From Nitrosococcus oceani ATCC 19707 (GTDB lineage: Bacteria; Pseudomonadota; Gammaproteobacteria; Nitrosococcales; Nitrosococcaceae), in assembly GCF_000012805.1 (NCBI RefSeq), contig NC_007484.1, forward strand, positions 1,560,001-1,592,000: 32,000 nt of DNA, in the 5' to 3' direction. The notes under the pieces were generated by a model. It had not been told where the DNA came from. It did not search any database and saw only the letters and a list, made by a program, of their open reading frames with translations. The translations under genes and the position numbers were made by a program. Each line of letters opens with the position of its first letter. The first letter of the stretch is position 1. Positions 2,030 to 15,918 of the stretch are shown piece by piece.

Positions 2030-2680
2030 ATGAAGTCAAAACAAGAGACGGATTCTGGAACCGGGGCAAGGCAAGTAGAAACCCCGGCAGTAGAGGAGCT
2101 AGAAGAGCACGAGGTCAGGGAAGAAGAAAACGCGGGCATGGAAATGGCGGCAAGGGCCTATCCCCGGAAGAGGCTTACCTTGGATGAGATGGTATTTTAT
2201 GGCTTGATCATCCTTTCGGTGATAGGCGTTGGAATTACTCAGGCTTCTGTCATTGTGGGCCGCACCTATTGGCTAGCCATGATACCGATTATTGCGGCCA
2301 CCACCCTTTATATAGAGTGGGAAAGGGACCGTGGAAAGGAGATCAGATGGCGAACGCTACTGCGAACCCAGCTTTTCCACTGGGCAGCGCTTTTGGTTTC
2401 CGTAGAGTTAGTGTACATGCTTTTCAATTTTGGCCGGCTCAGTAATGAAGGTGTGAGCCTAATGATTCTCCTGTTAGTGGCGCAGACGACGTTTCTGGTA
2501 GGGGTATATGTGGATTGGCGGTTTTCCATAGTGGCCTTGTTCCAGGTGTTGTGCCTCATCGTGCTGGCTTATTTGAAAGCTTATATATGGATAATGCTAT
2601 TAATTGCTACCGGGATTATTGCCTTGGGGATTTATTTCCATAGAAAATTTCCAGGAAAAATTCCTTCTTCCCGCCGCTAA
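2030..2680 (+). CDS. Hypothetical integral membrane protein (acidic N-terminal tail, about 5 TM helices)
   Basis: The ORF 1997-2680 begins at TTG, so I prefer the in-frame ATG at 2030 (MKSKQETDSG...). The Glu-rich N-terminus is followed by long hydrophobic segments. I recognise no family. Confidence 0.55.
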   Translation: MKSKQETDSGTGARQVETPAVEELEEHEVREEENAGMEMAARAYPRKRLTLDEMVFYGLIILSVIGVGITQASVIVGRTYWLAMIPIIAATTLYIEWERDRGKEIRWRTLLRTQLFHWAALLVSVELVYMLFNFGRLSNEGVSLMILLLVAQTTFLVGVYVDWRFSIVALFQVLCLIVLAYLKAYIWIMLLIATGIIALGIYFHRKFPGKIPSSRR

Positions 2681-2930
2681 TCGTGCTTAGCGGCGCTGCT
2701 TTTAGCTGTTCTAAAAACGTCCCGGCATGTAAAAATAGGCACTTAACCTATGGGAAATTGCCAGATAAAATTTTATGTTTTACAGGGTACTCGCTCGGTC
2801 TGCCCCACGAGAGCTAGAGGCATAATGGTTGGTGTTCCCAGTGGTGGGCATCTTGCCGCCATGCTCACCTTCTACTTATGACCCAGCCGTTGCACCGTTA
2901 ACGGCAGTTGTGTAACCCCCATTTTCTAAT

Positions 2931-4049
2931 ATGCCTCTTATTCGCGATTGGTTTCAGCGCTATTTTGCCGATCCTCAGGTAACTGGCCTGGCTATTTTAC
3001 TGGCTGTTGGTTTTGCCACTGTTGTCTTTATGGGCCACGTATTGGCGCCGGTGCTTGCAAGCCTGGTGATCGCCTATCTGCTCGAGGGAATCGTGGGATA
3101 TCTGGAGCGCCGAGGTTGCCCTCGCTGGATAGCCGTAATTTTGGTGTTTGTGGTGTTCATGGTTGCTCTTTTTGGGGACATCTTTGGATTGATACCCTTG
3201 CTTTCGCAACAGGTTACCCAGTTTTTCCAGCTTTTGCCTAAAATGATTGCCCAGGGGCAGCAGCTTCTGCTAAGCCTGCCTGAGTATTATCCAAATCTGT
3301 TCTCCCAGGACCAGGTCAATAATCTGGTGAGTGCCCTCCATGTTGAGGTGGCCCAATTGGGGCAAGAGATGCTTTCCTGGTCCCTGGCGTCAGTGACGAG
3401 CCTCATTATGCTGGGGATGTACCTTGTGCTGGTGCCGCTACTGGTATTTTTCTTCCTCAAGGACAAAAATCGCCTGGTTGGATGGTGTAAATCTTATCTT
3501 CCCCAGGAGCGAAAATTAATCGTTCAAGTCTGGCGTGAGGTGGATTTTCAGATTGCCAACTATATTCGTGGTAAATGTATCGAGATCCTAATTGTCTGGG
3601 CAGTAAGTTTTATTACCTTTTATCTTTTGGGTTTGCAGTTTTCTATGCTGCTGAGTGTGCTCATGGGATTGTCGGTGATTATTCCCTATATTGGGGCGAT
3701 GGCGATCACTTTGCTGGTAGCTTTTGTGGCTTACTTCCAATGGGGGTTGAGTGCTGAACTTGCTGAAGCATTCGGTGTTTGTGTGATCATCCAGTTCTTG
3801 GACGGCAATGTGTTGGCTCCTTTATTATTCGCCGAAGTGGTGGACTTGCACCCCGTGGCGGTGATTGTGGCCATTGTGGTTTTTGGTGGGGTGTGGGGAT
3901 TCTGGGGGCTCTTCTTTGCGATTCCGCTTGCCACTCTCATACAGGCGGTACTTAAAGCCTGGCCCAAGCTCCCCCCTGCAAAAGAGCCGCTTCCGCTGTT
4001 AAAACGTTGGGGTATTCGCTTCTTGCCGGGACGACAACGGTCGCGGTGA
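2931..4049 (+). CDS. AI-2E family transporter (PerM/UPF0118-like permease), paralog 1
   Basis: 372 aa polytopic membrane protein. The N-terminus MPLIRDWFQRYFADPQV...LAPVLASLVIAYLLEGIVGYLERRGCPRWIAV and the C-terminal IIQFLDGNVLAPLLFAEVVDLHPVAVIVAIVVFGGVWGFWGLFFAIPLA are typical of the family. Confidence 0.85.
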   Translation: MPLIRDWFQRYFADPQVTGLAILLAVGFATVVFMGHVLAPVLASLVIAYLLEGIVGYLERRGCPRWIAVILVFVVFMVALFGDIFGLIPLLSQQVTQFFQLLPKMIAQGQQLLLSLPEYYPNLFSQDQVNNLVSALHVEVAQLGQEMLSWSLASVTSLIMLGMYLVLVPLLVFFFLKDKNRLVGWCKSYLPQERKLIVQVWREVDFQIANYIRGKCIEILIVWAVSFITFYLLGLQFSMLLSVLMGLSVIIPYIGAMAITLLVAFVAYFQWGLSAELAEAFGVCVIIQFLDGNVLAPLLFAEVVDLHPVAVIVAIVVFGGVWGFWGLFFAIPLATLIQAVLKAWPKLPPAKEPLPLLKRWGIRFLPGRQRSR

Positions 4050-4200
4050 GGCAAGGTATCGTATATGCAGCAGCCGTACCCATGGGCCGCTTATCCATAA
4101 CGCTCGGGGCAAGAGTAATGGCCCTCATGTAGGGGAGACGACAGCACGAAGAAGGCGGCAGGTGCTTGATCTATCTCGATTGCAAGTTAAGGCATTGCCA

Positions 4201-4659
4201 TCAGTGAATGATCGTCACTGGCCCGCTAGCGTGGCGTACGACTTTTTCGCTCACGCTGCCTAGTAACAGGGCTTCAAAGCGTGAGAGACCGCGCCGCCCT
4301 ATTACTGTTATTGTGTTAGGGCGTTTCTCAAGGTAATGGATAATTTCCGTTGCTGGGTCGCCTGTGAGGATCTCTTCTTTAATTTCTTGGTCCTGGTCAC
4401 CAATAATCCGCCGGGCTTCGTCAAAAACCTTACGGGCTGTTTCTTTTTTGAGCTGTTCGTTATCTTCCTCCTCTGGATGGGTGATGCTCAAAAAATCAAA
4501 ATCGCTCGTGGCTCTCGTTGGAAATACGTAGAGCAAAGTCATTTTGTTTTTCGTCGTTTTAGCCAAGCGGGCAGCAAAGCGTGCTGCCCGCTTGGCATTT
4601 TCAGAGCCGTCTACCGTTACAATGATGTCTTCAATAATGTCATTGAATTGAGCATTCAT
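4201..4659 (-). CDS. Universal stress protein (UspA family)
   Basis: IIVTVDGSENAKRAARFAARLA...LLYVF...VIGRRGLSRFEALLLGSVSEKVVRHASGPVTIIH carries the Usp ATP-binding G-x2-G-x9-G(S/T) region. Start chosen at the ATG at 4659, which sits 8 nt after AAGGAG, rather than the ORF-track start at 4680. Confidence 0.85.
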   Translation of the reverse strand: MNAQFNDIIEDIIVTVDGSENAKRAARFAARLAKTTKNKMTLLYVFPTRATSDFDFLSITHPEEEDNEQLKKETARKVFDEARRIIGDQDQEIKEEILTGDPATEIIHYLEKRPNTITVIGRRGLSRFEALLLGSVSEKVVRHASGPVTIIH

Positions 4660-4775
4660 GATAATCGCTCCTTCATTCATATCCTAAGAAAGTCAGGTAT
4701 TCATTTACATTTATAGATATAGTCGCTCTCCTTAGCTTGCGCCAATAGAAATTTACGGTGCGGGTTAATCTTTTT

Positions 4776-5975
4776 TTAGCCTGGTCGTCCGTCTACCCTG
4801 GGCCGCCATAAGATAGAGGTATAGTGAAATAGGAAAACCCCAAAAGCCCCTATCCAGAGTCCACCCGAAAGCAGCCAAACAGCTACTATGTGAGTGGGCA
4901 GCAGCAGCGGGCCAGCGACTCGGACAATAACACCTAGCGTAATCAATCCATAAGCTAACATCATTCTTTCAGGCAATACCATGCGTCGTCCCGTATGGCC
5001 AAGGGAAACCCGCGAGATCATGCCCAGGATGAGCGTACCCATGGCTCCCACCGTCAACAGGTGGATTGCAATGCTATGGTAGTCTCCCGCTAGGTAGGCG
5101 TCCAAGCCCTTGGTGATAAGCCCGGCGCAAATCCATACATATCCTAGATGCAGCACCCATAGAAGCGGTTGGGATAAAGTTTTATACCCGCCCCAGCCAA
5201 GCAGACGGATTAGGTTAAATATTCCCGCCGCAAGGGCGATGGCGCCGGTGAGGGCGTTTATCCCACTGATGGCTTCTAACATCAAAAGCACGGCGACGGA
5301 GCCAATAGCCAGGCGCTCGAGCCAGACAGATTGGTGGATAGGGATTTGGAGGGTATTGCGGGTGAAGGAAGGAATTACCCGGCCGCCAAGGATCACCATT
5401 AAGAGAGTAATGACATTGACCGTGGCATGCAGGGCCGGTGCTGTTGCCGTGGGAAGATAACCTGCCCCGCCCAGGTGAACCAGCAGATTGCAACTTGCTA
5501 GAACCCCTAATATCACTACCAGGGCGATACTGCGGGTATGGCGCGCAGCCACGATAGGCCGGGCAACGAAAAATAATAGGCAGGGAATAAAGGCCATATC
5601 AACCGTAATGACAAGGAAAACAGGTAGGATATCTCCCCCTAGCATGACGGCTCGTCCAGCCATCCATAATAGAACGAGAAGAAGCAGGGAAGGGCCGGCC
5701 GCCGTAATACGCCCAGTCCAATTCTGGGCTGCGGTCAAAAGAAATCCCGCAATGATGGCGGCAACAAAGCCGAACAGCATCTCGTGGGCGTGCCAGTAAG
5801 GCAGGGGGAGGTGCGAATTGAGGCTCAATTGCCCGCTTAATAGCAATAGCCATAAGAGCATCCAGACGCTGCTCATCAAGGTTCCAAGCCAGAAAAAGGG
5901 CCGGAAACCCGTACCCAGGAAAGTCCAGCGGCGGTGCTGCAACACAGCGTTTGAAAAGGGGGTAGAGGAAGACAT
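4776..5975 (-). CDS. nnrS: NnrS family protein (haem/copper membrane protein linked to NO stress response)
   Basis: 399 aa with about 12 TM. GFRPFFWLG...WHAHEMLFGFVAAIIAGFLLTAAQNWTG is the characteristic NnrS N-terminal signature with conserved His residues. Confidence 0.85.
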   Translation of the reverse strand: MSSSTPFSNAVLQHRRWTFLGTGFRPFFWLGTLMSSVWMLLWLLLLSGQLSLNSHLPLPYWHAHEMLFGFVAAIIAGFLLTAAQNWTGRITAAGPSLLLLVLLWMAGRAVMLGGDILPVFLVITVDMAFIPCLLFFVARPIVAARHTRSIALVVILGVLASCNLLVHLGGAGYLPTATAPALHATVNVITLLMVILGGRVIPSFTRNTLQIPIHQSVWLERLAIGSVAVLLMLEAISGINALTGAIALAAGIFNLIRLLGWGGYKTLSQPLLWVLHLGYVWICAGLITKGLDAYLAGDYHSIAIHLLTVGAMGTLILGMISRVSLGHTGRRMVLPERMMLAYGLITLGVIVRVAGPLLLPTHIVAVWLLSGGLWIGAFGVFLFHYTSILWRPRVDGRPG

Positions 5976-6055
5976 AGACCTTAGGCTCCTGCAAACAACA
6001 CGGGAAATAATAACTATTCTTTTTTGTATTTAACTTGTTGTAATAAATAGAAAAA

Positions 6056-6084
6056 TTGACAATTCTTTAGTGCTTCGCTAAAGT
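6056..6084 (+). promoter_or_regulatory. Candidate sigma70 promoter of bacterioferritin gene
   Basis: TTGACA (6056-6061), a 17 nt spacer, then TAAAGT (6079-6084), about 40 nt upstream of the bfr ATG. Confidence 0.45.
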
Positions 6085-6125
6085 ATTTTTAAACCATCAT
6101 ACAATAACAGCAAGGAGTGTGCACC

Positions 6126-6590
6126 ATGAAGGGCGATAAAAAGATAATCAGCTACCTTAATAAAGCGCTGACCAATGAATTGACGGCTATCAACCAGTAT
6201 TTCCTCCATGCCCGTATGTATAAGAATTGGGGCTTTGAAAAGCTGAATAAATATGAGTACGATGCCTCCATTGACGAGATGAAGCATGCGGATCAGCTTA
6301 TTGAACGAATTTTATTCCTGGAAGGACTGCCCAACCTTCAGGATATGGGTAAGCTTTTAATTGGTGAAACTCCCAAGGAAATGCTGGAGTGTGATCTCAA
6401 GCTGGAACAGGATAATTTACCCGTGCTAAGAGAAGCGATTGCCCATTGCGAGAAGCAAAGCGACTATGTTTCCCGGGAGTTGTTTGAAGGAATTCTGGAC
6501 AGTGAGGAAGAACATATCGATTGGTTAGAAACTCAGTTAGAGCTTATTAAGCAGGTAGGCGAGCAAAACTATCTTCAATCTCACATGTAA
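6126..6590 (+). CDS. bfr: Bacterioferritin
   Basis: [37 protein letters not shown]...[15 protein letters not shown] shows the classic Bfr ferroxidase-centre residues and the haem-ligand Met context. AAGGAG (6112-6117) lies 8 nt before the ATG at 6126. Confidence 0.95.
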
Positions 6591-6613
6591 GATCAGCTCG
6601 AACGTTTTCGCGG

Positions 6614-6651
6614 GGCCATCCTTCTGGTAACAACAAGTAGGATGGCCTTTT
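6614..6651 (+). terminator. Rho-independent terminator downstream of bfr
   Basis: GGCCATCC (6614-6621) pairs with GGATGGCC (6640-6647) and is followed by TTTT (6648-6651). Confidence 0.6.
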
Positions 6652-6846
6652 GGGGTGCAGATAGCCTGTTTCCAATGCAGGGGGGTACGTTGTGTCCAGG
6701 ATCTCGGCCCCTTAGGTTTCTTTATGAAAGTGTTTGAGGCATTGGAGGAGAAGGAGGTAGTTCCCTTTTTTTAGAGTCCTTACTCAGGGACGTCCCTCCT
6801 TTAATATTTATCAGCGTTATCTATATAAAACCCATGCTAGACTCTG

Positions 6847-7497
6847 TCAGCTCTCTAAGGTTTTAATAAATTCATTGGCCTCATCGATTGCAGCTTCCAT
6901 TTCTTGAACTAGCCGGTTGACATCCGTCTCTATAGTGCTGAGCTCCCCTTGTAAGGACGCAATGGCGCGGGCATTAAGATTATGCTTCAGGAACAGCACC
7001 TGATCATGGAAGGTGGTGAGTACCGGCTCTATTTTTGCTTCGGCGCGTTTCATGGCCCGGATCAGCTTGTCATAGCGGGTACGGGTTTGGGTAAGTTGCT
7101 GTTGGCTGCTGCGTCGTAGTGAGGGGTTATCGTACTGGTCCAGTTCTTCTTCCCATTCTTGGAACAAAGCTCCAGCAACGTTTTCAACAGAGGCGATACG
7201 GTCATGCACGGCTTCCGCCTTTTTCTGGCTGGCTTGATACTCGCCATTGAGCTCTTCATAAAGATCTTCTAGGTCGCCCCCATCGTAGTTCACAACGGAA
7301 GAAAATTGCTCTAGCGCGGACTGAAATTGTTCCTTCGCTTCAATTTGGGTATCCCGTACTTCTTCGACCCGATCTGCCAAAATATCCCTTTTGTGATACC
7401 CAAATTCCTCCATGGTTTTGTAATAGGCAGCTTGACAGCCGGTAAGTAGCAATAAAAAGAGGCTGGTTAGAAAGGCTCGAAGGGTTATGTTTAGCAT
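6847..7497 (-). CDS. DUF2959 family lipoprotein (coiled-coil rich)
   Basis: Lipobox LLLTGC is followed by QAAYYKTMEEFGYHKRDILADRVEEVRDTQIEAKEQFQSALEQF, which matches my memory of the DUF2959 N-terminus. The rest is helical and charged. Confidence 0.75.
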   Translation of the reverse strand: MLNITLRAFLTSLFLLLLTGCQAAYYKTMEEFGYHKRDILADRVEEVRDTQIEAKEQFQSALEQFSSVVNYDGGDLEDLYEELNGEYQASQKKAEAVHDRIASVENVAGALFQEWEEELDQYDNPSLRRSSQQQLTQTRTRYDKLIRAMKRAEAKIEPVLTTFHDQVLFLKHNLNARAIASLQGELSTIETDVNRLVQEMEAAIDEANEFIKTLES

Positions 7498-7611
7498 GGG
7501 AAAAGCTTCCGTTTTTAGACTAAAATTAAAAATAATAACAGAATTCTGAATAGAGAAAGCGGAGATGGGATGGGGACCTGAGACGTCGTTGTTTGTGTGG
7601 GTTTTTCAGCC

Positions 7612-8727
7612 ATGCAAAAACTAGCTGGAGTCCTGCAAAATTTCTTTAATCAGGCCCACGCTAAAGGCCGGTTACGCCGTGAGTGCTTTGGTAATCTGAT
7701 TTATTATCGACTTATTGATGATAGCCAACCCTTCAGGAGAGGGACGGTTATTTTTGAGGAGGGGACGCTGATTCCGGGGTATCCTCAGATTGGTCGGATG
7801 ATACGCCTTGATAAAGGACTTAAGGAACAATTTACTAAACCTTTTTGGGCGGAAGAGAAAGTCGATGGCTATAACGTACGTATTTTTCTGCTGGGAGAAC
7901 GTTTGCTAGGAGTAACGCGAGGTGGGTTTCTGTGTCCATTTACGGTAGATAGGCTTCCGGATCTGATAGATGAACGGATATTTTCTGACCACCCAGACTT
8001 TATTCTCTGCGGAGAGATAGCGGGTCCTGAAAACCCTTATCTCATCGGCTCTCCCCCTTTTATTAAGGAAGATATTCAGCTTTTCATCTTTGATTGCCAG
8101 CGTAAGGGCGAGTTCGACTATTTATCCCAAGCAGAAAAGCATCAGCTGATGGAGCATTATTCCCTCCCCTCGGTGCGTAATTTCGGCCTCTTTAAAGCTG
8201 AAGATATTCTCGCTATCAAACAGTTGATGATGACCCTGGATACGGAGGGTTGCGAGGGGTTGGTTTTTAAGGAGGATGTTCCCAGGGGCAAGCGGTCAAA
8301 GTACGTGACCAGCGATGCTAGTCTGAGCGATATTCAGGCCATGGCGCGTTACCTGCCAGATTTCCCGCCTGAATACTTCATAGGCCGCATTCTGCGGTCA
8401 GTCATTTTTCTGGATGAAGAGGGCATCAGCAGTACCCATGAACTCAAGGCCCAGCTAGGAAGCGCTTTTATAGATGGCCTGCTCAAGGCCATCAAGCAAT
8501 GCCAGCGCGAGCATCGGGTCTATCATCGTTTTCGTTGTCGCCTGCATGACCGTGCTAATGCAAGGCAGCTTTTAGCCCATTTGGCAAGGGGCGATGGTCA
8601 CATCCAAATCGTCAAGCATCGTCTGGTACGAGAAGGAGAGTTTTATATATTTGAATTTGATAAGGTTTTTCAGCGTACTACGGGGTTACTCGGTGAGTTG
8701 CTTTCAGGAGAGATGGTTTATGACTGA
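7612..8727 (+). CDS. ATP-dependent RNA ligase, Pab1020/Rnl3 (archaeal homodimeric) family
   Basis: Nucleotidyltransferase motifs I EEKVDGYNVR, III FILCGEIAG, IV CEGLVFKE and V GKRSKYVTS are present. The N-terminal RRGTVIFEEGTLIPGYPQIGRMIRLDKGLKEQFTKPFWAEEK is collinear with Pab1020 as I recall it. ATG at 7612 preferred over GTG at 7597. Confidence 0.85.
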   Translation: MQKLAGVLQNFFNQAHAKGRLRRECFGNLIYYRLIDDSQPFRRGTVIFEEGTLIPGYPQIGRMIRLDKGLKEQFTKPFWAEEKVDGYNVRIFLLGERLLGVTRGGFLCPFTVDRLPDLIDERIFSDHPDFILCGEIAGPENPYLIGSPPFIKEDIQLFIFDCQRKGEFDYLSQAEKHQLMEHYSLPSVRNFGLFKAEDILAIKQLMMTLDTEGCEGLVFKEDVPRGKRSKYVTSDASLSDIQAMARYLPDFPPEYFIGRILRSVIFLDEEGISSTHELKAQLGSAFIDGLLKAIKQCQREHRVYHRFRCRLHDRANARQLLAHLARGDGHIQIVKHRLVREGEFYIFEFDKVFQRTTGLLGELLSGEMVYD

Positions 8728-8749
8728 TATATTTTTCCCCTTGAGTGGC

Positions 8750-9346
8750 TTATTTTTGGGGCCGACTACAGGAGGTTAGGTTTTCTAACACTCGCCGTAG
8801 ATGTTGGGGGAGGATGATCTTAACCCCAACTTTATCCGCCCATTTACGCAGCCCCTCGTCTGCTGAGAGCAGCACCCCATCCAGCTCATAGGCAAGCAGC
8901 AAAACGTCGATATCTTCCCTGCTGTCGACAATGCCTCTGCGCAAGGTTTCTCGATAGCGTTCCCGCAGGCGGGTAATTAAGGCCCCTTGATCGGCAACGG
9001 TACCCGGTTGGGCGGCCATGCGGGCATGCTCCTCAGCAATGCGCAGGCCCCGGTCAATGCGGTGGCGGACCTCATGGATAAGCTCATAGAGAAACTCGCT
9101 TGGAATAGTCAGGCTGTATCGTCTTGGGGAGCGGATCTTGACTACGCTTTCAAAGTCGCCGCCAAGGGAAGCAAGGTCTTTCATGAGTCGGAACTCTTCA
9201 TAGACGGAACCTGGGATAAAAAACTCCGCGTCTGCTCGTCTAGCGAGTTGTAGAAATATCCGTGTTGCTTCCACCGCATCGCGGGCAAATTGGTTGAAGG
9301 TATCTGGATTAGTGAACACGCTGGTATCAAGAATGAAGCGTTCCAT
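8750..9346 (-). CDS. PIN-like 'RNA ligase partner' protein (MJ_0950 family)
   Basis: [15 protein letters not shown] (first PIN Asp) ... [30 protein letters not shown] (C-terminal PIN acidic residues). About 198 aa, convergent with the ligase with 22 nt between stop codons. Start placed at the ATG at 9346, not the ORF-track 9442. Confidence 0.8.
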
Positions 9347-9431
9347 ATGAATGCCGCTGGCGTATTTGCAAGGTTGGTGAGGAAGGGATCTTATCTTGGC
9401 TTGATTCTCCAAGACCTTCGAGGAAAAAGCA

Positions 9432-9887
9432 ATGAAAATCAAACAACGTTCCGCGGGTGTTGTCGTGATTAGAAAAACAGTTAATTACTGCCAGTACTTA
9501 TTATTACGAGCCTACCATTACTGGGATTTTCCCAAGGGATTGGTACAGCCAGGCGAAGATCCGGTAATGGCCGCTTGCCGGGAAGTGGAAGAGGAGACGG
9601 GCCTTACCCAACTCCAGTTTCGTTGGGGGTACCAATGCCGTGAAACTCCGCCCTACGGCCGTGGTAAAGTAGCCATTTATTATCTCGCCCTGGCATCCAG
9701 AAGCGAAGTGCATCTCCCTGTTAGCCTCGAACTTGGCCGGCCTGAACACCATGAGTTTCGTTGGGTGACCTACCGGGAAGGACATCAACTTCTAGGTGGC
9801 CGGTTGCGGGAGGTGCTTAATTGGGCTCAACGGATCAGCGATTGTAAGGCAGGGTGCGGGAGTACCCCTTTTAATCCGTCTTATTGA
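9432..9887 (+). CDS. Nudix hydrolase (Ap4A-hydrolase/RppH-like architecture)
   Basis: The Nudix box is perfect: [23 protein letters not shown] (Gx5Ex7REVxEExGL). The N-terminal SAGVVVIR...[14 protein letters not shown] resembles small Ap4A-type Nudix enzymes. Confidence 0.85.
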
Positions 9888-10860
9888 CTATACAGCCACT
9901 GAATTCAGGGAACGGGAATTGGTCAATGTCAGTGAGTGCCAACCCTATCTCCAGGCTCCCGGCAATACTTGGATTCATGTTCAAGGCCATGCCGAAGTTG
10001 CCATTCTGCGCCAGCTTAGGGAACTGTTTAATCTTCATCCTTTGGCGATGGAGGATGTCCTCAATACAGGGCAACGTCCCAAGGTGGAAAGCTACGATGA
10101 GCAGCTGTTTGTCATTTTAAGTCTGGCTGTCATTAATGACTCAACCATAAAGACAAGGCAAATCAGCTTGTTTTTAGGCGAACACTATATCGTAAGTTTC
10201 TGCAACGGTTATAGCGATCCCTTTGAGCCGGTTAGAAAAAGGCTGCGAAAAAACGGTAAACGTTTCCAATCCCGCTCCATAGATTATCTATTTTACATTT
10301 TGATTGATTTGGTTGTTGATGAAGGGTTTCCGGTATTAGAGCGCTTTGGTGAGCAGCTTGAAGATCTTGAGATGGAGCTTTTGCGCTGCCCAACGCAGGA
10401 TACCTTGGCCTGGATTCACCAGATTAAACGGGAACTCTTATTGCTGCGCCGGATATTTTGGCCCCAGCGGGAAGTCATCCATGGACTACTGCGAGAGGAT
10501 TACAATCTTATTGCCGAAGGGACCAAAATCTATTTGCGGGACTGCTATGATCACAGTACTCAGATCATGGAGTTACTAGAAACCTATCGGGAGATGAGCA
10601 GTAGCATGTTGGATGTTTATCTTTCCAGTGTCAGTCATCATACCAATGAAATTATGCGGATATTGACCATTATCGCCACTATTTTCATCCCTCTGACCTT
10701 TATCGCGGGTGTTTACGGCATGAATTTCGGTAATGATTCTAATAGCCCCTGGGCAATGCCAGAGCTTCACTGGTATTACGGTTATCCCTTGATATGGTTG
10801 GTGATGATTGCAGTGGCCGTTTTACTGCTCATCTTCTTCAAACACCGGGGGTGGTTTTGA
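9796..10860 (+). CDS. corA: Magnesium/cobalt transporter CorA
   Basis: Contains the GVYGMNF motif, two C-terminal TM helices, and HPLAMEDVLNTGQRPKVE in the N-terminal domain. The only canonical in-frame start is GTG at 9796, which overlaps the Nudix gene by 92 nt, so the start is uncertain. Confidence 0.88.
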   Translation: MAGCGRCLIGLNGSAIVRQGAGVPLLIRLIDYTATEFRERELVNVSECQPYLQAPGNTWIHVQGHAEVAILRQLRELFNLHPLAMEDVLNTGQRPKVESYDEQLFVILSLAVINDSTIKTRQISLFLGEHYIVSFCNGYSDPFEPVRKRLRKNGKRFQSRSIDYLFYILIDLVVDEGFPVLERFGEQLEDLEMELLRCPTQDTLAWIHQIKRELLLLRRIFWPQREVIHGLLREDYNLIAEGTKIYLRDCYDHSTQIMELLETYREMSSSMLDVYLSSVSHHTNEIMRILTIIATIFIPLTFIAGVYGMNFGNDSNSPWAMPELHWYYGYPLIWLVMIAVAVLLLIFFKHRGWF

Positions 10861-10887
10861 TTCGCCGGATAGATTTTAATTTTTGAT

Positions 10888-11523
10888 ATGCTGCATTGGG
10901 AGTATGGGATAACGCTGCTGGCCTTTACGCTGTTAGGTGGCTATCATTTTTATTTGTTCTGGCGAATACGCAGGCGGCCGTTATCCACGGCGGTGGGCCT
11001 GTCCCGGCGCATCCGTAAGCTATGGGTCAAGAGGATCATACAAGAAGGACGGGATATTCTAGCCGTCCAAACCTTACGTAACTGGACCATGGCAGCGACG
11101 CTTCTTGCCTCCACTGCAATTTTGCTGGGCCTTGGTCTGCTGAATGTGGCTTTTACCACGGAGCAACAACCCCAGCTGTCCAAGCTGCTGAATTACTTGG
11201 GCTACGATAGCGAGTTAGCGTGGCTATTGAAGCTGGTGATATTGAGCGGGGATTTCTTTTTTGCTTTTTTTAATTTTACCCTGGCGATTCGCTACTACAA
11301 TCATACGGGCTTTATGATTAATGTCCCTGCGTGCCAGGAAGCCGGCGTGAGCGCTAAAACAGTCACGGAAATACTGCAGCGGGGCGCTAACCACTATACG
11401 TTAGGGATGCGGGGCTATTATTTGGCTATCCCTTTGTCTCTATGGCTATTCGGTTCTGTATGGCTGCTGGGTGGAACATTACTATTGCTAGTAGTGCTCT
11501 ATCGGCTAGATCGGTTTGTGTGA
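10888..11523 (+). CDS. DUF599 family membrane protein
   Basis: 211 aa with 4 TM. YHFYLFWRIRRRP...IRKLWVKRIIQEGRDILAVQTLRNWTMAATLLASTAI fits my recollection of DUF599. Its 3' end overlaps the convergent czcA by 25 nt. Confidence 0.65.
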   Translation: MLHWEYGITLLAFTLLGGYHFYLFWRIRRRPLSTAVGLSRRIRKLWVKRIIQEGRDILAVQTLRNWTMAATLLASTAILLGLGLLNVAFTTEQQPQLSKLLNYLGYDSELAWLLKLVILSGDFFFAFFNFTLAIRYYNHTGFMINVPACQEAGVSAKTVTEILQRGANHYTLGMRGYYLAIPLSLWLFGSVWLLGGTLLLLVVLYRLDRFV

Positions 11524-14500
11524 ACCCATTCATAGAGGGCAGGCAGAACCAGCAGGGTGAGAAGCGTAGAAGAAAGGATGCCCCCAATGACCACGGTAGC
11601 CAGGGGGCGTTGCACTTCTGCTCCAGTGCTAGTGGCCAGGGCCATGGGGATAAAGCCCAGGGCGGCCACCAAGGCTGTCATTAGCACCGGGCGCAGGCGG
11701 GTCAGGGCCCCTTGCCGAACGGCCTCCTCCAGGGGTAAACCCTCCTCGCGCAGTTTTTTAATAAAGGCGATCATGACCAAGCCATTGAGCACCGCCACGC
11801 CGGAAAGGGCGATAAAGCCTACGCCTGCAGAGATGGAAAGGGGAATATCCCGCAGCCAAAGAAATACTATCCCGCCGGTCAAGGCGAAGGGGACGCCGGT
11901 AAAGACTAGCAGGCCATCCTTAAGGGTGCCAAAGGTCCTATAGAGGAGGATAAAAATAAGGAGGAGGGTGATGGGGACGACAATCTCGAGGCGCTTAGCG
12001 GCGGCGATCATTTGTTCAAACTGGCCGCCCCAGGTGCTCCAGTAGCCTGGGGGGATCTTAACTTGCGCCTGGATTTTGCTCCGAGCTTCCGCCACAAAGG
12101 AGCCTAGGTCGCGGCCGCGAACATTAGTGGTGACAGCCAGCCGGCGTTTGCCATTCTCCCGGCTAATTTGATTGGGTCCGGGAGTGATTTCCAAAGTCGC
12201 CACGGTACTGAGGGGAATATAGCTGGGGCGAAGAGGTACCCCTGCCGCGCCCTGCAAGGGGAATTGCTGTGATGCCGATCCCCTGGAGGGAAGGGGGAGC
12301 GGGAGACGCTTTAAGGTCTTAAGATTACTACGCAAGTCCTCGGGAAGGCGAACCACCAGGGGAAAATGGCGATCCCCTTCATAGATCATCCCCGTACTAT
12401 CCCCCCCGGCAGCGGTTTTTCCTCCCAGCGCGACGGTAATGACTGCTTGGACGTCAGCCACATTGAACCCATAGCGGGCCATCTTTTCCCGTTTCATCCG
12501 CACGGTAACCACGGGCAAACCCGTTATCGGTTCCACCCGGACATCCGCCGCTCCAGGGACGGTTTTCAGCACTGCTGCAATGCGCTCACCCGTGTTAAGC
12601 AAGGTAGCCATATCATCGCCGAAAACTTTGACTGCAATATCCGCCCGCACGCCGGAAATAAGCTCATTGAAACGCAGCTCGATGGGCTGAGTAAACTCGT
12701 ATTTGTTACCGGGAAGTTGAGTGATGCTGGCTTCCATCGCCTGGAGTAAGTCGGTTTTTGGGCGCTCCGGGTTCGGCCATTCCGCCCTCGGTTTGAGCAT
12801 GATCAGGGTATCGGCGACATTGGGAGGCATGGGATCATTGGCAATTTCCGCGGTTCCAATCCGGGCAACGACGGTTTTTACCTCGGGAAATGCCATGATC
12901 TTTTCCTCCAGCGCGCGTTGCATCTCCACCGACTGGGAGAGGCTGGTTCCGGTAGCCCGAATGGCTTGTACCGCCATGTCCCCTTCATCTAGGGTAGGCA
13001 CAAATTCAGCGCCCATGCGGGTTGTCAGTAGCCCACTGAGCACCACTATTATCGCCGCGAGGGTGATGACTACTATTTTGTTGTTGAGGGTAAAATGCAG
13101 TGCTGGCCGATAAGCTTTTTTAGCTAGCGCCAGGGCGGGATTTTCTTTTTCGGCGATAGGCCCATTGACGAAAATGGCTACCGCCGCAGGGACAAAGGTG
13201 ACCGAGAGGATCATGGCCCCGAACAGGGCGGCCACAACCGTGAAGGCCATAGGATGGAACATCTTCCCCTCCACCCCGGTTAGGGTAAAGAGGGGGAGAT
13301 ATACGGCCATGATAATGGTTTGTCCATAGAGAATCGCCCGGCGGGCTTCCTCGGAGGAATGGAATACCACCTCCAACCGTTCTGATAGCGATAGGGTATG
13401 TCCTCGGCGCTGTTGTGCCTCCGCCAAATGCCGGATGCTATTCTCGACGATGACCACGGCCCCGTCCACAATAATGCCAAAATCCAGCGCCCCCAGGCTC
13501 ATGAGATTGGCGCTGACCTTTTCGGTGACCATGCCGGTGATGGTGAACAGCATGGACAGGGGGATCACCATGGCGGTGATTAGAGCAGCGCGGAAATTTC
13601 CCAAAAAGAGGAAGAGCACGGCAATCACTAGCGCTGCCCCCTCCAGCAAGTTATTTCTCACCGTGGCAATGGTTTTATCTACCAGAATGGTGCGATCATA
13701 AGCGCTTTTTGCCTCCACGCCCTCGGGCAGGGTGCGGTTAATTTCCGCCAACCGCTCCGCGACCGCACGGGCCACCGTCCGGCTATTTTCCCCCATGAGC
13801 AGGAAGGCGGTCCCTAGCACGGTTTCTTCCCCTTCCCGGGTGGCTGCGCCGGTACGCAATTCTTTTCCGAGCAGCACATCGGCCACATCCTTGACGTATA
13901 CCGGAACGCCCTGATGGGCGCCCACGATGATATGGCTTATTTCCTCTAAGTTTTGTACTTGCCCTGGAGCCCGAATCAGATACTGCTCGCCATGGTGCTC
14001 AATATAGCCTGCGCCTACATTGGCATTATTGCGGGCCAGGGCGGTGAGTAAATCCCGGAAGGAGAGACCATAGGCGATAAGTTTTTTCGGGTAGGGGGTG
14101 ACGTGATACTGCTTAATATACCCTCCCAGGCTGTTGATCTCGGTTACCCCTGGGACGGTGATCAATTGGGGTTTGATCACCCAATCCTGGATAGTTCTCA
14201 AGCTGGTGAAAGTATAAGGGGCGCCATCTGGCTTGCGGGCGCCAGGTTCCGCTTCCACCGTCCAGAGAAAAATTTCGCCCAGTCCCGTGGCGATAGGACC
14301 CATCTTAGGCTCGATGCCTGGCGGAAGGTTGCCCTTAGCTTCCTGGATGCGTTGATTCACCAACTGACGGGCAAAATAGATATCGGTGCCGTCCTCAAAA
14401 ATAACGGTCACCTGGGAAAGCCCATAACGGGAGAGGGAACGGGTCTCCTCTAGCTGGGGAAGCCCTTGCAGGGTAATCTCAAGGGGAAAAGTAATGCGCT

Positions 14501-14687
14501 GCTCCGTCTCAAGGGGCGAATAGCCTGGCGCTTCGGTGTTGATCTGAACTTGCACATTGGTGATATCGGGGACAGCGTCGATGGGTAGGCGCTGGTAATT
14601 ATAAATCCCCAGCACGGCTACCCCGAAGGTGGCTAATAACACTAGCCAACGCTGCTGAACAGAAAATTTTAGAATACGGGTAAACAC
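11499..14687 (-). CDS. czcA: Heavy-metal efflux RND pump, CzcA/CusA family
   Basis: More than 1060 aa with 12 TM and two large periplasmic loops. The N-terminus ...FTRILKFSVQQRWLVLLATFGVAVLGIYNYQRLPIDAVPDITNVQVQI is typical of the HME-RND family. I prefer GTG at 14687 (28 nt after the czcB stop) to the ORF-track ATG at 14777, whose extra 30 aa are Pro/Ser-rich and overlap czcB. Confidence 0.9.
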   Translation of the reverse strand: MFTRILKFSVQQRWLVLLATFGVAVLGIYNYQRLPIDAVPDITNVQVQINTEAPGYSPLETEQRITFPLEITLQGLPQLEETRSLSRYGLSQVTVIFEDGTDIYFARQLVNQRIQEAKGNLPPGIEPKMGPIATGLGEIFLWTVEAEPGARKPDGAPYTFTSLRTIQDWVIKPQLITVPGVTEINSLGGYIKQYHVTPYPKKLIAYGLSFRDLLTALARNNANVGAGYIEHHGEQYLIRAPGQVQNLEEISHIIVGAHQGVPVYVKDVADVLLGKELRTGAATREGEETVLGTAFLLMGENSRTVARAVAERLAEINRTLPEGVEAKSAYDRTILVDKTIATVRNNLLEGAALVIAVLFLFLGNFRAALITAMVIPLSMLFTITGMVTEKVSANLMSLGALDFGIIVDGAVVIVENSIRHLAEAQQRRGHTLSLSERLEVVFHSSEEARRAILYGQTIIMAVYLPLFTLTGVEGKMFHPMAFTVVAALFGAMILSVTFVPAAVAIFVNGPIAEKENPALALAKKAYRPALHFTLNNKIVVITLAAIIVVLSGLLTTRMGAEFVPTLDEGDMAVQAIRATGTSLSQSVEMQRALEEKIMAFPEVKTVVARIGTAEIANDPMPPNVADTLIMLKPRAEWPNPERPKTDLLQAMEASITQLPGNKYEFTQPIELRFNELISGVRADIAVKVFGDDMATLLNTGERIAAVLKTVPGAADVRVEPITGLPVVTVRMKREKMARYGFNVADVQAVITVALGGKTAAGGDSTGMIYEGDRHFPLVVRLPEDLRSNLKTLKRLPLPLPSRGSASQQFPLQGAAGVPLRPSYIPLSTVATLEITPGPNQISRENGKRRLAVTTNVRGRDLGSFVAEARSKIQAQVKIPPGYWSTWGGQFEQMIAAAKRLEIVVPITLLLIFILLYRTFGTLKDGLLVFTGVPFALTGGIVFLWLRDIPLSISAGVGFIALSGVAVLNGLVMIAFIKKLREEGLPLEEAVRQGALTRLRPVLMTALVAALGFIPMALATSTGAEVQRPLATVVIGGILSSTLLTLLVLPALYEWVHTNRSSR

Positions 14688-14715
14688 GATTTTTCTAGTG
14701 ATGAAGGAATTGAGG

Positions 14716-15918
14716 TTACGGGGGGGCCATGGCTTCGCCGAGCTCGGATTTGAGCACAAAGCTGTTGTCGGCGGCATAGCGTTCCCCGGCAGAGAGACCG
14801 GTCACCACTTCTATCCACTGTCCACTGCGGCGTCCCAGGGTGATGGGCCGGGCCTTAAAGCCATTTCGGTGTTGGACGAACACCACCGGCTGGCTTCGGT
14901 AGGTTTGGATGGCTTCGGCAGCGACCGCTACCGGAACAGAGATTTTCTTTTCCGCTACCTCCACCGTCACGAAAAGACCAGGACGCCAGCGTTCCTCAGA
15001 ATTGGGAATATCCACATGAGCCTGGGTGGAACGAGTTTGGGCGTCAATTAGGTACCCCAAATAAAAAATAGTGCCGGTCGCTTCCAAGCCTAGTTCTTCG
15101 GATTTTACCGTGACTTTCTGGCCCAAATGAATTTGCTTGAGATCCTCTGTGTAGACAGTAATAGTTCCCCAAACCGTGGATAAGTCGGCAATCATAAAAA
15201 GTTCGGCGTCCGCCTTGACGGCCTCGCCACGGACCACATGTTTGCGCACCACTCGGCCATTAAAAGGAGCCCGGATAGGATAACGGCTCAGGTTTGACTG
15301 GCCTTCTTTGGGAATAGTGTCCAAGGATTCCTGGGTAAGTCCTAAAGCAAGGAGGCGTTGCGCGGCGGCGGTGACGGTGATATCAGCTTCAGCCAAGGCT
15401 GTTTTTGCTGCTAAGTAGTCTTGCTCGGCGGAGACCCTCTCCCGCCATAAGCGCGCTTCCCGAGCAAAAGTGATCTGGGCCAGTTCCCGCTGCTTAATAG
15501 CGGTATAGTACTGACTTTTTAAATCCGCCAATTCCCGGCTTTCTAAAACGGCTATGAGCTCTCCCTTCTCGACAGGCGCGCCTAGGTGCTTGTAAGCTGC
15601 GGTGATAACGCCTTCTACCCGAGGGACCACATGGGCTACACGGTTTTCATTGAATTGTATCTCGCCAGGGAGTTCCAAGGTTGTTTTGATTTGTGCGGGT
15701 CCCGCCGCTCTGACCTTAATGCCCGCCTTTTGTTGGGCCTTGGGAGTGAGGACAATATATTTTTCTCCAGGAGAATTTGTCTTAGTTTGGGCTTGTTGGT
15801 TAGCGGAAGGGGTGCTTTTCTCATTCACGCTGGGGGTTTTCATTTGCAAAATGAACCAGCCCAGCAGGAGCCCCATCCCAATGATGCTCAGGACGGTGAG
15901 CAGGGTTTTGTTTTTCAT
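14716..15918 (-). CDS. czcB: Efflux RND periplasmic adaptor (membrane fusion protein), CzcB/CusB family
   Basis: Has an N-terminal TM/signal sequence, a coiled-coil hairpin (ELADLKSQYYTAIKQRELAQITFAREARLWRERVSAEQDYLAAKTALAEADI) and beta-barrel domains. It starts 3 nt after the czcC stop. Confidence 0.9.
   Translation of the reverse strand: MKNKTLLTVLSIIGMGLLLGWFILQMKTPSVNEKSTPSANQQAQTKTNSPGEKYIVLTPKAQQKAGIKVRAAGPAQIKTTLELPGEIQFNENRVAHVVPRVEGVITAAYKHLGAPVEKGELIAVLESRELADLKSQYYTAIKQRELAQITFAREARLWRERVSAEQDYLAAKTALAEADITVTAAAQRLLALGLTQESLDTIPKEGQSNLSRYPIRAPFNGRVVRKHVVRGEAVKADAELFMIADLSTVWGTITVYTEDLKQIHLGQKVTVKSEELGLEATGTIFYLGYLIDAQTRSTQAHVDIPNSEERWRPGLFVTVEVAEKKISVPVAVAAEAIQTYRSQPVVFVQHRNGFKARPITLGRRSGQWIEVVTGLSAGERYAADNSFVLKSELGEAMAPP

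Follow-up and report, generated by a model that had tools for sequence, protein, structure and literature searches.

A convergent HARP and Rnl3 RNA ligase gene pair in Nitrosococcus oceani and its association with a NUDT2-like Nudix hydrolase gene

Gene organization of the locus

We analyzed a 32,000-nucleotide (nt) stretch of the Nitrosococcus oceani ATCC 19707 genome (contig NC_007484.1, positions 1,560,001 to 1,592,000), hereafter called the window, in which genes for an Rnl3-type RNA ligase, a predicted RNA-free RNase P (HARP), and a NUDT2-like Nudix hydrolase lie side by side. Table 1 lists these genes together with the other features mentioned below. A preliminary description of the window, made from its letters without database searches, had proposed that the three genes could form an RNA cut-and-reseal module. 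Rechecking of open reading frames and motifs reproduced its three reading frames, the 22-nt and 85-nt spacers, the quoted motifs, and the Nudix box. The GC content of the window is about 50%, and three NCBI assemblies carry the same proteins in the same gene order at this locus. The ligase start differs among assemblies, giving proteins of 364, 371, or 376 amino acids (aa).

The spacer between the ligase and HARP genes is too short for separate terminators, and the interval between the HARP and Nudix genes is presumed to be a bidirectional promoter region. In a scan of positions 7300 to 11000, no sigma-70 consensus was found in either spacer, nor was a terminator-like hairpin, the ligase-HARP spacer included; the numbers of promoter and terminator sites across the scanned segment were no higher than in shuffled controls. 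As nearby candidate substrates, Rfam families and tRNAs (ARAGORN) were sought in the 32-kb window and none was found. Conservation of approximately 30 nt abutting the Nudix ATG (ATTCTCCAAGACCTTCGAGGAAAAAGCA) is confined to the Nitrosococcaceae, with equivalent positions in L026, L027, and L112 (L numbers are our labels for HARP loci), and the remainder of the intergenic region has diverged across the family. This conserved stretch could be a 5' untranslated region or a regulatory element.

Table 1. Coordinates of features in the N. oceani window and at other HARP loci
Locus	Feature	Position	Strand	Remarks
Window	Rnl3 RNA ligase	7612-8727	+	371 aa; ATG 7612, TGA 8725-8727
Window	Ligase alternative start, GTG	7597	+	
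Window	Ligase-HARP spacer	8728-8749		22 nt between convergent stop codons
Window	HARP (PIN_5 protein)	8750-9346	-	198 aa
Window	HARP-Nudix intergenic region	9347-9431		85 nt between divergent ATGs
Window	Conserved ~30 nt abutting Nudix ATG	9400-9431		Nitrosococcaceae only
Window	NUDT2-like Nudix hydrolase	9432-9887	+	151 aa
Window	Metal/stress genes	4776-7497 and 9919-14777		
Window	CorA	9796-10860		Longest reading frame, from GTG 9796; start ambiguous
L118	Divergent ligase/HARP, haloarchaeal	3766-5666		
L119	Divergent ligase/HARP, haloarchaeal	3728-5666		
L120	Divergent ligase/HARP, haloarchaeal	3739-5672		
L014	~90-aa HARP-divergent protein	2597-2869		
L016	~90-aa HARP-divergent protein	5645-5917		
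L019	~90-aa HARP-divergent protein	5633-5929		
L020	~90-aa HARP-divergent protein	5647-5916		
L026	S30AE-cold-shock fusion	8791-9357		N. halophilus
L027	S30AE-cold-shock fusion	7897-8445		N. wardiae
L112	S30AE-cold-shock fusion	6542-7108		Nitrosococcus-like contig
L026	TnpB/IS605-type transposase remnant	7428-8532		N. halophilus

Family assignment of the three proteins

The ligase scored 351 bits against TIGR01209 (cutoff, 137 bits; residues 10 to 371) and also matched PF09414 and PF18330, the Lig_C domain corresponding to the C-terminal dimerization domain of Pab1020 (E = 1e-20). Its motifs I (EEKVDGYN, residues 81 to 88, with K83 as the motif I lysine), Ia (TRGG, 102 to 105), III (FILCGEIAG, 130 to 138), IV (EGLVFKE, 215 to 221), and V (GKRSKYVT, 226 to 233) align, identical or near-identical, with those of Pab1020 and of the bacterial structure 3qwu. 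Structure-linked matches covered residues 7 to 368 for Pab1020 (2vug; E = 2e-71) and nearly the full length for 3qwu (E = 3e-118). The profile search places the protein inside the family to which the preliminary description had assigned it, and judged by sequence its membership in the Rnl3 (Pab1020/TIGR01209) family appears secure. It is collinear over about 360 residues with Pab1020, MthRnl, and T. kodakarensis Rnl3 and keeps both their motifs and Lig_C. Characterized Rnl3 enzymes are ATP-dependent homodimers that adenylylate a 5'-phosphate (5'-P) RNA end and join it to a 3'-OH, typically circularizing single-stranded RNA. The in vivo substrates of the archaeal enzymes, circular C/D-box small RNAs (sRNAs), do not exist in bacteria, in contrast to the window ligase, whose host is a bacterium. 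The closest solved relative, much nearer than Pab1020, is 3qwu, which was deposited as "DNA ligase"; the bacterial Rnl3 clade has a solved structure under a misleading name.

The protein encoded opposite the ligase scored 230 bits against TIGR03875, "RNA ligase partner" (cutoff, 95), and 317 bits against NF003344 (cutoff, 241), and it matched PF08745 (PIN_5) with an E value of 4e-65. Its matches in the Protein Data Bank (PDB) were led by 7og5 (H. halophila HARP; E = 4e-72) and 8ssf (6e-70), followed by 7f3e, 8kd9, and 7e8k, all of them entries named "RNA-free ribonuclease P," and it is about 63% identical to the solved HARP structures. Daniels et al. (2019) identified HARP with PIN_5/PF08745, TIGR03875, and COG1458 (PMC6380272). 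Because these families are HARP and because the protein matches solved RNA-free RNase P structures, we identify the ligase partner, from its sequence, as HARP, a protein-only RNase P with a predicted intact PIN active site. The earlier remark that the function of this partner family had never been established is out of date (PMC6380272).

The catalytic features of HARP are retained in the partner. Its ILDTS (residues 5 to 9) and SADEG (161 to 165) motifs are present, and D7, D141, D145, and D163 align with aspartates in the HARP structures of H. halophila and H. thermophilus, so that the acidic residues expected of a PIN-like protein are kept. Across 22 bacterial HARP homologs, D141, D145, D163, R128, and R132 never vary, and D7 is found in 21, the remaining one having Glu. 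The spike-helix pattern R126-x-R128-x-R130-x-R132, of the basic kind that pre-tRNA binding requires, is present, and the alignment to solved HARPs reaches residue 191 to 194, covering the region of the C-terminal helix, on which oligomerization depends. The four aspartates and the spike arginines are identical in the solved HARPs, the family of the protein-only RNase P Aq880 (Nickel et al. 2017; structures 7og5, 8ssf, 7f3e, and 7e8k). In Aq880, the essential residues are D7, D138, D142, and D161, with R125 and R129 in the spike helix (PMC8266387). The residue correspondence between the partner and Aq880, including an offset of +3 for the arginines, follows from motif spacing rather than from direct alignment.

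Characterized HARPs are oligomeric, Mg-dependent PIN_5 endonucleases that remove the 5' leader and leave the 5'-phosphate on the product. When HARPs from five bacteria with both kinds of RNase P were tested, those of four (three gammaproteobacteria and one verrucomicrobium) showed weak or no pre-tRNA cleavage and could not substitute for the RNase P of E. coli; functional rnpA and rnpB are present in all five bacteria. The H. halophila enzyme, the closest characterized relative of the partner, was active only at high concentration and was unstable. Aquifex, which lacks a ribonucleoprotein RNase P, depends on HARP, whereas gammaproteobacterial HARPs coexist with functional rnpA and rnpB.

The third protein matched PF00293 (E = 2e-17), and its Nudix box at residues 36 to 58 fits GX5EX7REUXEEXGU. 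The preliminary description had likened it to RppH, a comparison that does not hold at the family level. No NCBIfam equivalog, five RppH models included, reached its cutoff, the best RppH scores being 23 to 31 bits versus cutoffs of 116 to 259, and matches to RppH structures in the PDB were limited to the box (residues 22 to 64); a canonical RppH was accordingly rejected. The best PDB sequence matches were 1kt9, a C. elegans diadenosine tetraphosphate (Ap4A) hydrolase (E = 1e-12; residues 6 to 115), and 3u53, human NUDT2 (1.7e-10). An AlphaFold2 model (pLDDT, 90.5) gave 1ktg, 3u53, 3i7u, and 4mpo as the top Foldseek hits, with Ap4A hydrolases first (TM, 0.74 to 0.82) and RppH next (about 0.65 for the E. 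coli enzyme). Tyr75, located 17 residues past L58 at the end of the box, is invariant in 33 family members and aligns with a tyrosine of the C. elegans Ap4A hydrolase; Dunn, Bessman, and coworkers are said to have described in 1999 a tyrosine 16 to 18 residues after the Nudix box as an Ap(n)A-hydrolase signature. The family is very widespread, with >3,300 clusters, and its members go by the NCBI name bis(5'-nucleosyl)-tetraphosphatase, among them a 97%-identical homolog entered as "bis(5'-nucleosyl)-tetraphosphatase [Nitrosococcus oceani]." By sequence and by its modeled fold, the protein is assigned to the NUDT2-like, asymmetrical Ap4A hydrolase type.

The Nudix box and downstream tyrosine are common to the window protein and to NUDT2-like Ap4A hydrolases (1ktg, 3u53, Aquifex aq_158 3i7u, and Chlamydia CT771), to which it is only 27 to 30% identical. 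E. coli RppH also hydrolyzes Ap4A and Np4-capped RNA. We know of no characterized member of the bacterial clade to which the window protein belongs, and of none tied to an RNA ligase or RNase P. Since NUDT2 turns 5'-triphosphorylated RNA (PPP-RNA) into 5'-monophosphorylated RNA (PMC8616924), the window Nudix protein may carry out the conversion that the preliminary description proposed.

Linkage of the HARP and ligase genes

Co-occurrence of PIN_5 with the TIGR01209 ligase was noted by Matelska et al. in 2017. Seshadri and Gopalan (mBio 2025) then mined >1 million genomes and found 751 with HARP, of which 89% have Rnl3; in 80% of the bacterial cases the two genes are co-localized (PMC12153264). 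Table S1 of that study records N. oceani AFC27 and AFC132 and N. halophilus Nc4 as HARP positive, ligase positive, co-localized, and "Convergent." The pair in the window agrees with the published one in its families (PF08745/TIGR03875 and TIGR01209/PF18330), in its convergent, abutting layout, and in its species. The two-gene core is already known, and the window locus is a known member. The authors proposed joint RNA processing or circularization, 5'-adenylylation, or a toxin-antitoxin relation, and, as a mechanism, C/D-box sRNA maturation and circularization (PMC12153264), which cannot hold in a bacterium.

We surveyed 102 HARP loci, comprising 19 from other GTDB species, 80 metagenomic loci found by a scan with a HARP alignment, and three from Nitrosococcus, and collapsed them at 95% HARP identity into 75 lineages. 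The surveyed HARPs are 55 to 69% identical to the query and essentially of the gammaproteobacterial type, leaving Aquificae, Thermodesulfobacteria, and most archaea unsampled; the trees are neighbor-joining trees of short proteins without support values. The ligase gene adjoins HARP in 56 of the 75 lineages, and all 56 junctions are convergent. The gap between the two stop codons has a median of -15 nt and extremes of -42 and +839 nt; it exceeds 60 nt in only 4 lineages, and in 37 of the 56 the coding regions overlap tail to tail. The HARP and ligase mRNAs are therefore antisense to each other at their 3' ends where such an overlap exists. This layout suggests coupling through antisense or transcriptional interference, so far undiscussed; the published account says only "convergent" and does not report the overlap (PMC12153264).

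On haloarchaeal megaplasmids, the ligase and HARP genes, where adjacent, are instead divergent and approximately 100 to 120 nt apart. The plasmids concerned are large and non-mobilizable, and their HARP is still annotated as "RNA ligase partner protein."

Recurrence of the Nudix gene beside the pair

A link between a Nudix gene and the HARP-ligase pair is mentioned neither in the 2025 study nor in its supplement (PMC12153264), nor in any other searchable paper, in agreement with the earlier statement that it was undescribed. In a first pass over the 19 GTDB species loci, no homolog of the window Nudix protein was found, and the only gene with a Nudix box was an unrelated one lying 3.3 kb off in L018. 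The provisional view based on these 19 loci, that the adjacency is synteny confined to the genus, was overturned by the sweep of 80 metagenomic loci, six of which matched a hidden Markov model (HMM) of the Nudix family with E values of 1e-58 to 1e-68. Nudix counts were taken from HMM and tblastn matches, the crude gene caller having picked antisense reading frames in high-GC contigs.

Of the 56 lineages with the ligase, 7 have a gene of the Nudix family no more than 1.5 kb from the pair; these are N. oceani, N. halophilus/N. wardiae, L078/L084, L052, L058, L082, and L044. Among the 32 lineages whose sequence extends 700 nt or more to each side, 6, or about one in five, have it near the pair. 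The trio is also present on L112, a Nitrosococcus-like contig found separately and kept outside the survey counts. The adjacency that had been noted in the window thus recurs outside Nitrosococcus.

The arrangement differs between the positive lineages. Nitrosococcus loci read ligase> <HARP Nudix>, and those of the other Nudix-positive lineages read HARP> <ligase Nudix>. The Nudix gene of five lineages is divergently transcribed and lies 77 to 105 nt from its neighbor. The positive lineages span GC contents of 51% to 74%, and in the ligase tree the nearest relative of each is Nudix negative. No other flanking gene is common to the Nudix-positive loci; the genes beyond Nudix all differ (APP1-type phosphatase, nitroreductase, DUF190, asparaginase, and dienelactone hydrolase). 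Nor did any other third gene family recur across deep branches of the surveyed HARP loci: two families were found in five lineages each, both confined to one Methylothermaceae-like clade. If the juxtapositions arose independently, the Nudix adjacency recurs well beyond chance. The association of the Nudix gene with the pair is apparently a modest, undescribed lead, and the conserved tail-to-tail overlap of HARP and ligase is another modest one.

A three-gene mobile cassette was considered and rejected, as the Nudix proteins of the positive loci are dispersed over their family tree, the ligase had no homolog in a phage collection, and plasmid-borne HARP was seen only on the non-mobilizable haloarchaeal megaplasmids.

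Interpretation of the association

On balance, we lean toward a reading in which the known HARP-Rnl3 pair acts on common RNAs in an accessory form of RNA end processing, with the Nudix hydrolase as an optional, functionally linked addition. HARP would make a 5'-P end on a structured RNA, and Rnl3 would seal or circularize the same RNA, the pair serving in accessory, probably stress-related, RNA end processing and repair. The classical ribonucleoprotein RNase P would presumably keep the housekeeping task of maturing tRNA 5' ends. Overlap of the mRNA 3' ends in the tail-to-tail layout could couple the expression of HARP and ligase. In a minority of lineages, a NUDT2-like dinucleoside-polyphosphate hydrolase of the host may have become linked to the pair via a shared divergent promoter region. 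Its likeliest contribution would be 5'-end or adenylate upkeep for the ligase, either by turning PPP- or Np4-capped RNA into RNA with a 5'-P that can be ligated or by clearing Ap4A or adenylylated RNA (App-RNA) by-products of the ligase-AMP intermediate, two roles that hydrolysis of Np(n)N and PPP-RNA would suit. Since the Nudix gene stands beside the ligase in five lineages, a ligase-centered role is slightly favored. The Nudix protein is best regarded as an accessory that the system can do without rather than as one of its defining parts.

Several observations weigh against this reading. The Nudix gene is missing from 26 of the 32 informative bacterial lineages (~80%) and from all five haloarchaeal megaplasmid HARP loci. 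The HARP-linked Nudix proteins form no clade but are scattered in the family tree, the family is mostly found without HARP, and the genes of close relatives outside the Nitrosococcaceae are not near a HARP or ligase gene. Moreover, the Nudix-positive loci all fall in one part of the HARP tree, so that a single ancestral juxtaposition followed by one inversion and several losses may account for them, and the divergent intergenic regions share no operator or promoter motif across lineages. Functionally coupled genes usually form co-directional operons, not convergent pairs. To our knowledge, no experiment in any organism ties HARP to Rnl3 functionally, and the sole in vivo Rnl3 substrates that we know to be established, the C/D-box sRNAs, are absent from bacteria. 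The three-gene module of the preliminary description is upheld to the extent that its Nudix member recurs beside the pair, and it fails as a general rule, the trio being the exception among bacterial loci and absent from the five archaeal ones. In short, the observation made in the window is confirmed, and its interpretation is partly supported.

The strongest competing account, quite possible though short of probable, accepts the pair as real and treats the Nudix protein as an unrelated housekeeping Ap4A hydrolase whose position is a historical accident. The genes would have been juxtaposed in a gammaproteobacterial ancestor, the symmetric convergent pair would have been inverted in the Nitrosococcus line, and the arrangement would have been retained neutrally in a few lineages. 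The wide distribution of the Nudix family, usually apart from HARP, and its absence from most informative loci fit this account, as do the linked Nudix proteins, which track their hosts rather than a cassette clade, and the Nitrosococcus neighborhood, which is syntenic as a whole (DUF2959, CorA, DUF599, and RND pump). However, no other neighbor has been retained between Nitrosococcus and the other five Nudix-positive lineages, every positive lineage has a negative nearest relative, and the divergent Nudix junction is tight on either flank of the pair. Chance adjacency, roughly estimated for a single-copy gene among ~3,000, is about 0.1% per independent lineage.

We regard as unlikely a second account, in which HARP is a back-up RNase P under harsh conditions and Rnl3 an independent repair enzyme, the two being co-retained or co-transferred in extreme habitats. 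Pre-tRNA 5' cleavage is the sole proven activity of HARP, HARP and Rnl3 are restricted to organisms of extreme habitats, and the possibility was listed by the authors of the 2025 study (PMC12153264). A shared niche alone is nonetheless insufficient to explain very tight linkage with overlapping stop regions in 56 lineages whose other neighbors differ, and gammaproteobacterial HARPs are poor RNases P.

Doubtful to a slightly greater degree is the more ambitious form of our own proposal, in which the trio constitutes, in a subset of gammaproteobacteria including Nitrosococcus, a true pathway of RNA 5'-end remodeling and sealing. The Nudix enzyme would then generate 5'-P from triphosphate, Np4-capped, or abortively adenylylated ends, HARP would trim structured 5' leaders, and Rnl3 would circularize or repair specific bacterial RNAs. 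If true, this would amount to programmed RNA circularization or repair in bacteria and would give HARP a role beyond tRNA maturation. What HARP does in organisms with a classical RNase P of their own has been a question since 2017, to which genome mining in 2025 offered Rnl3 as the only clue; a recurrent third neighbor acting on 5'-5' polyphosphate or 5'-triphosphate ends would mark RNA 5'-end chemistry as the common theme, with PPP-RNA, Np4-capped RNA, and App-RNA as candidate Nudix substrates. Should the adjacency amount to no more than residual synteny, the locus would be an ordinary catalogued pair, whose main value lies in correcting the stale "RNA ligase partner protein" annotation.

Improbable, and the least favored of the four, is an antagonistic relation of the toxin/antidote kind, in which RNAs cut by HARP under stress are resealed by the ligase and the convergent overlap enforces reciprocal expression. 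HARP falls in the VapC group of PIN nucleases (PMC6380272), the invariably convergent bacterial pair, overlapping in most lineages, suits transcriptional interference or antisense control, and the idea has been raised before (PMC12153264). Yet deletion of the ligase in T. kodakarensis caused no growth defect, HARP knockouts in two archaea had no phenotype, and E. coli tolerates HARP expression, which can even complement an RNase P defect. Furthermore, the haloarchaeal pair is divergent, PADLOC returned only sub-threshold generic matches to known defense and toxin-antitoxin models, the ligase has no relatives in a phage collection, and plasmid-borne HARP is limited to the megaplasmids described above. 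A VapBC-type toxin-antitoxin or catalogued defense system was rejected outright, the neighbor being a convergent 371-aa ligase and not a small co-directional antitoxin and PADLOC assigning no membership; a defense or toxin-antitoxin reading has little support.

Other features of HARP neighborhoods

In the Methylothermaceae/Methylohalobius-like clade, a protein of about 90 aa is always encoded divergently from HARP and is followed by a protein of about 450 aa without a Pfam match (Table 1). One member of the ~90-aa family showed a weak match to a Zn ribbon, and the arrangement is apparently lineage-level synteny.

On both sides of the three genes, the window contains metal and stress genes encoding NnrS, bacterioferritin, a DUF2959 lipoprotein, CorA, DUF599, and a CzcA-type RND efflux pump. 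The block is syntenic across Nitrosococcus species and is not common to other HARP loci. The start of CorA is ambiguous: the longest reading frame overlaps the 3' end of the Nudix gene by 92 nt, most database calls begin at TTG 9919 (313 aa), and one assembly gives 346 aa. In the N. oceani window, CorA directly follows Nudix after a 31-nt gap.

The other Nitrosococcus loci have additional genes at this point. A gene fusing S30AE (ribosome-hibernation factor) to a cold-shock domain, which is not present in the N. oceani window, sits between Nudix and CorA in N. halophilus and N. wardiae and between Nudix and DUF599 in L112. In N. halophilus, a transposase remnant of the TnpB/IS605 type, with a match to Cas12f1-like_TNB and a weak one to OrfB_IS605, lies directly downstream of the Nudix gene.

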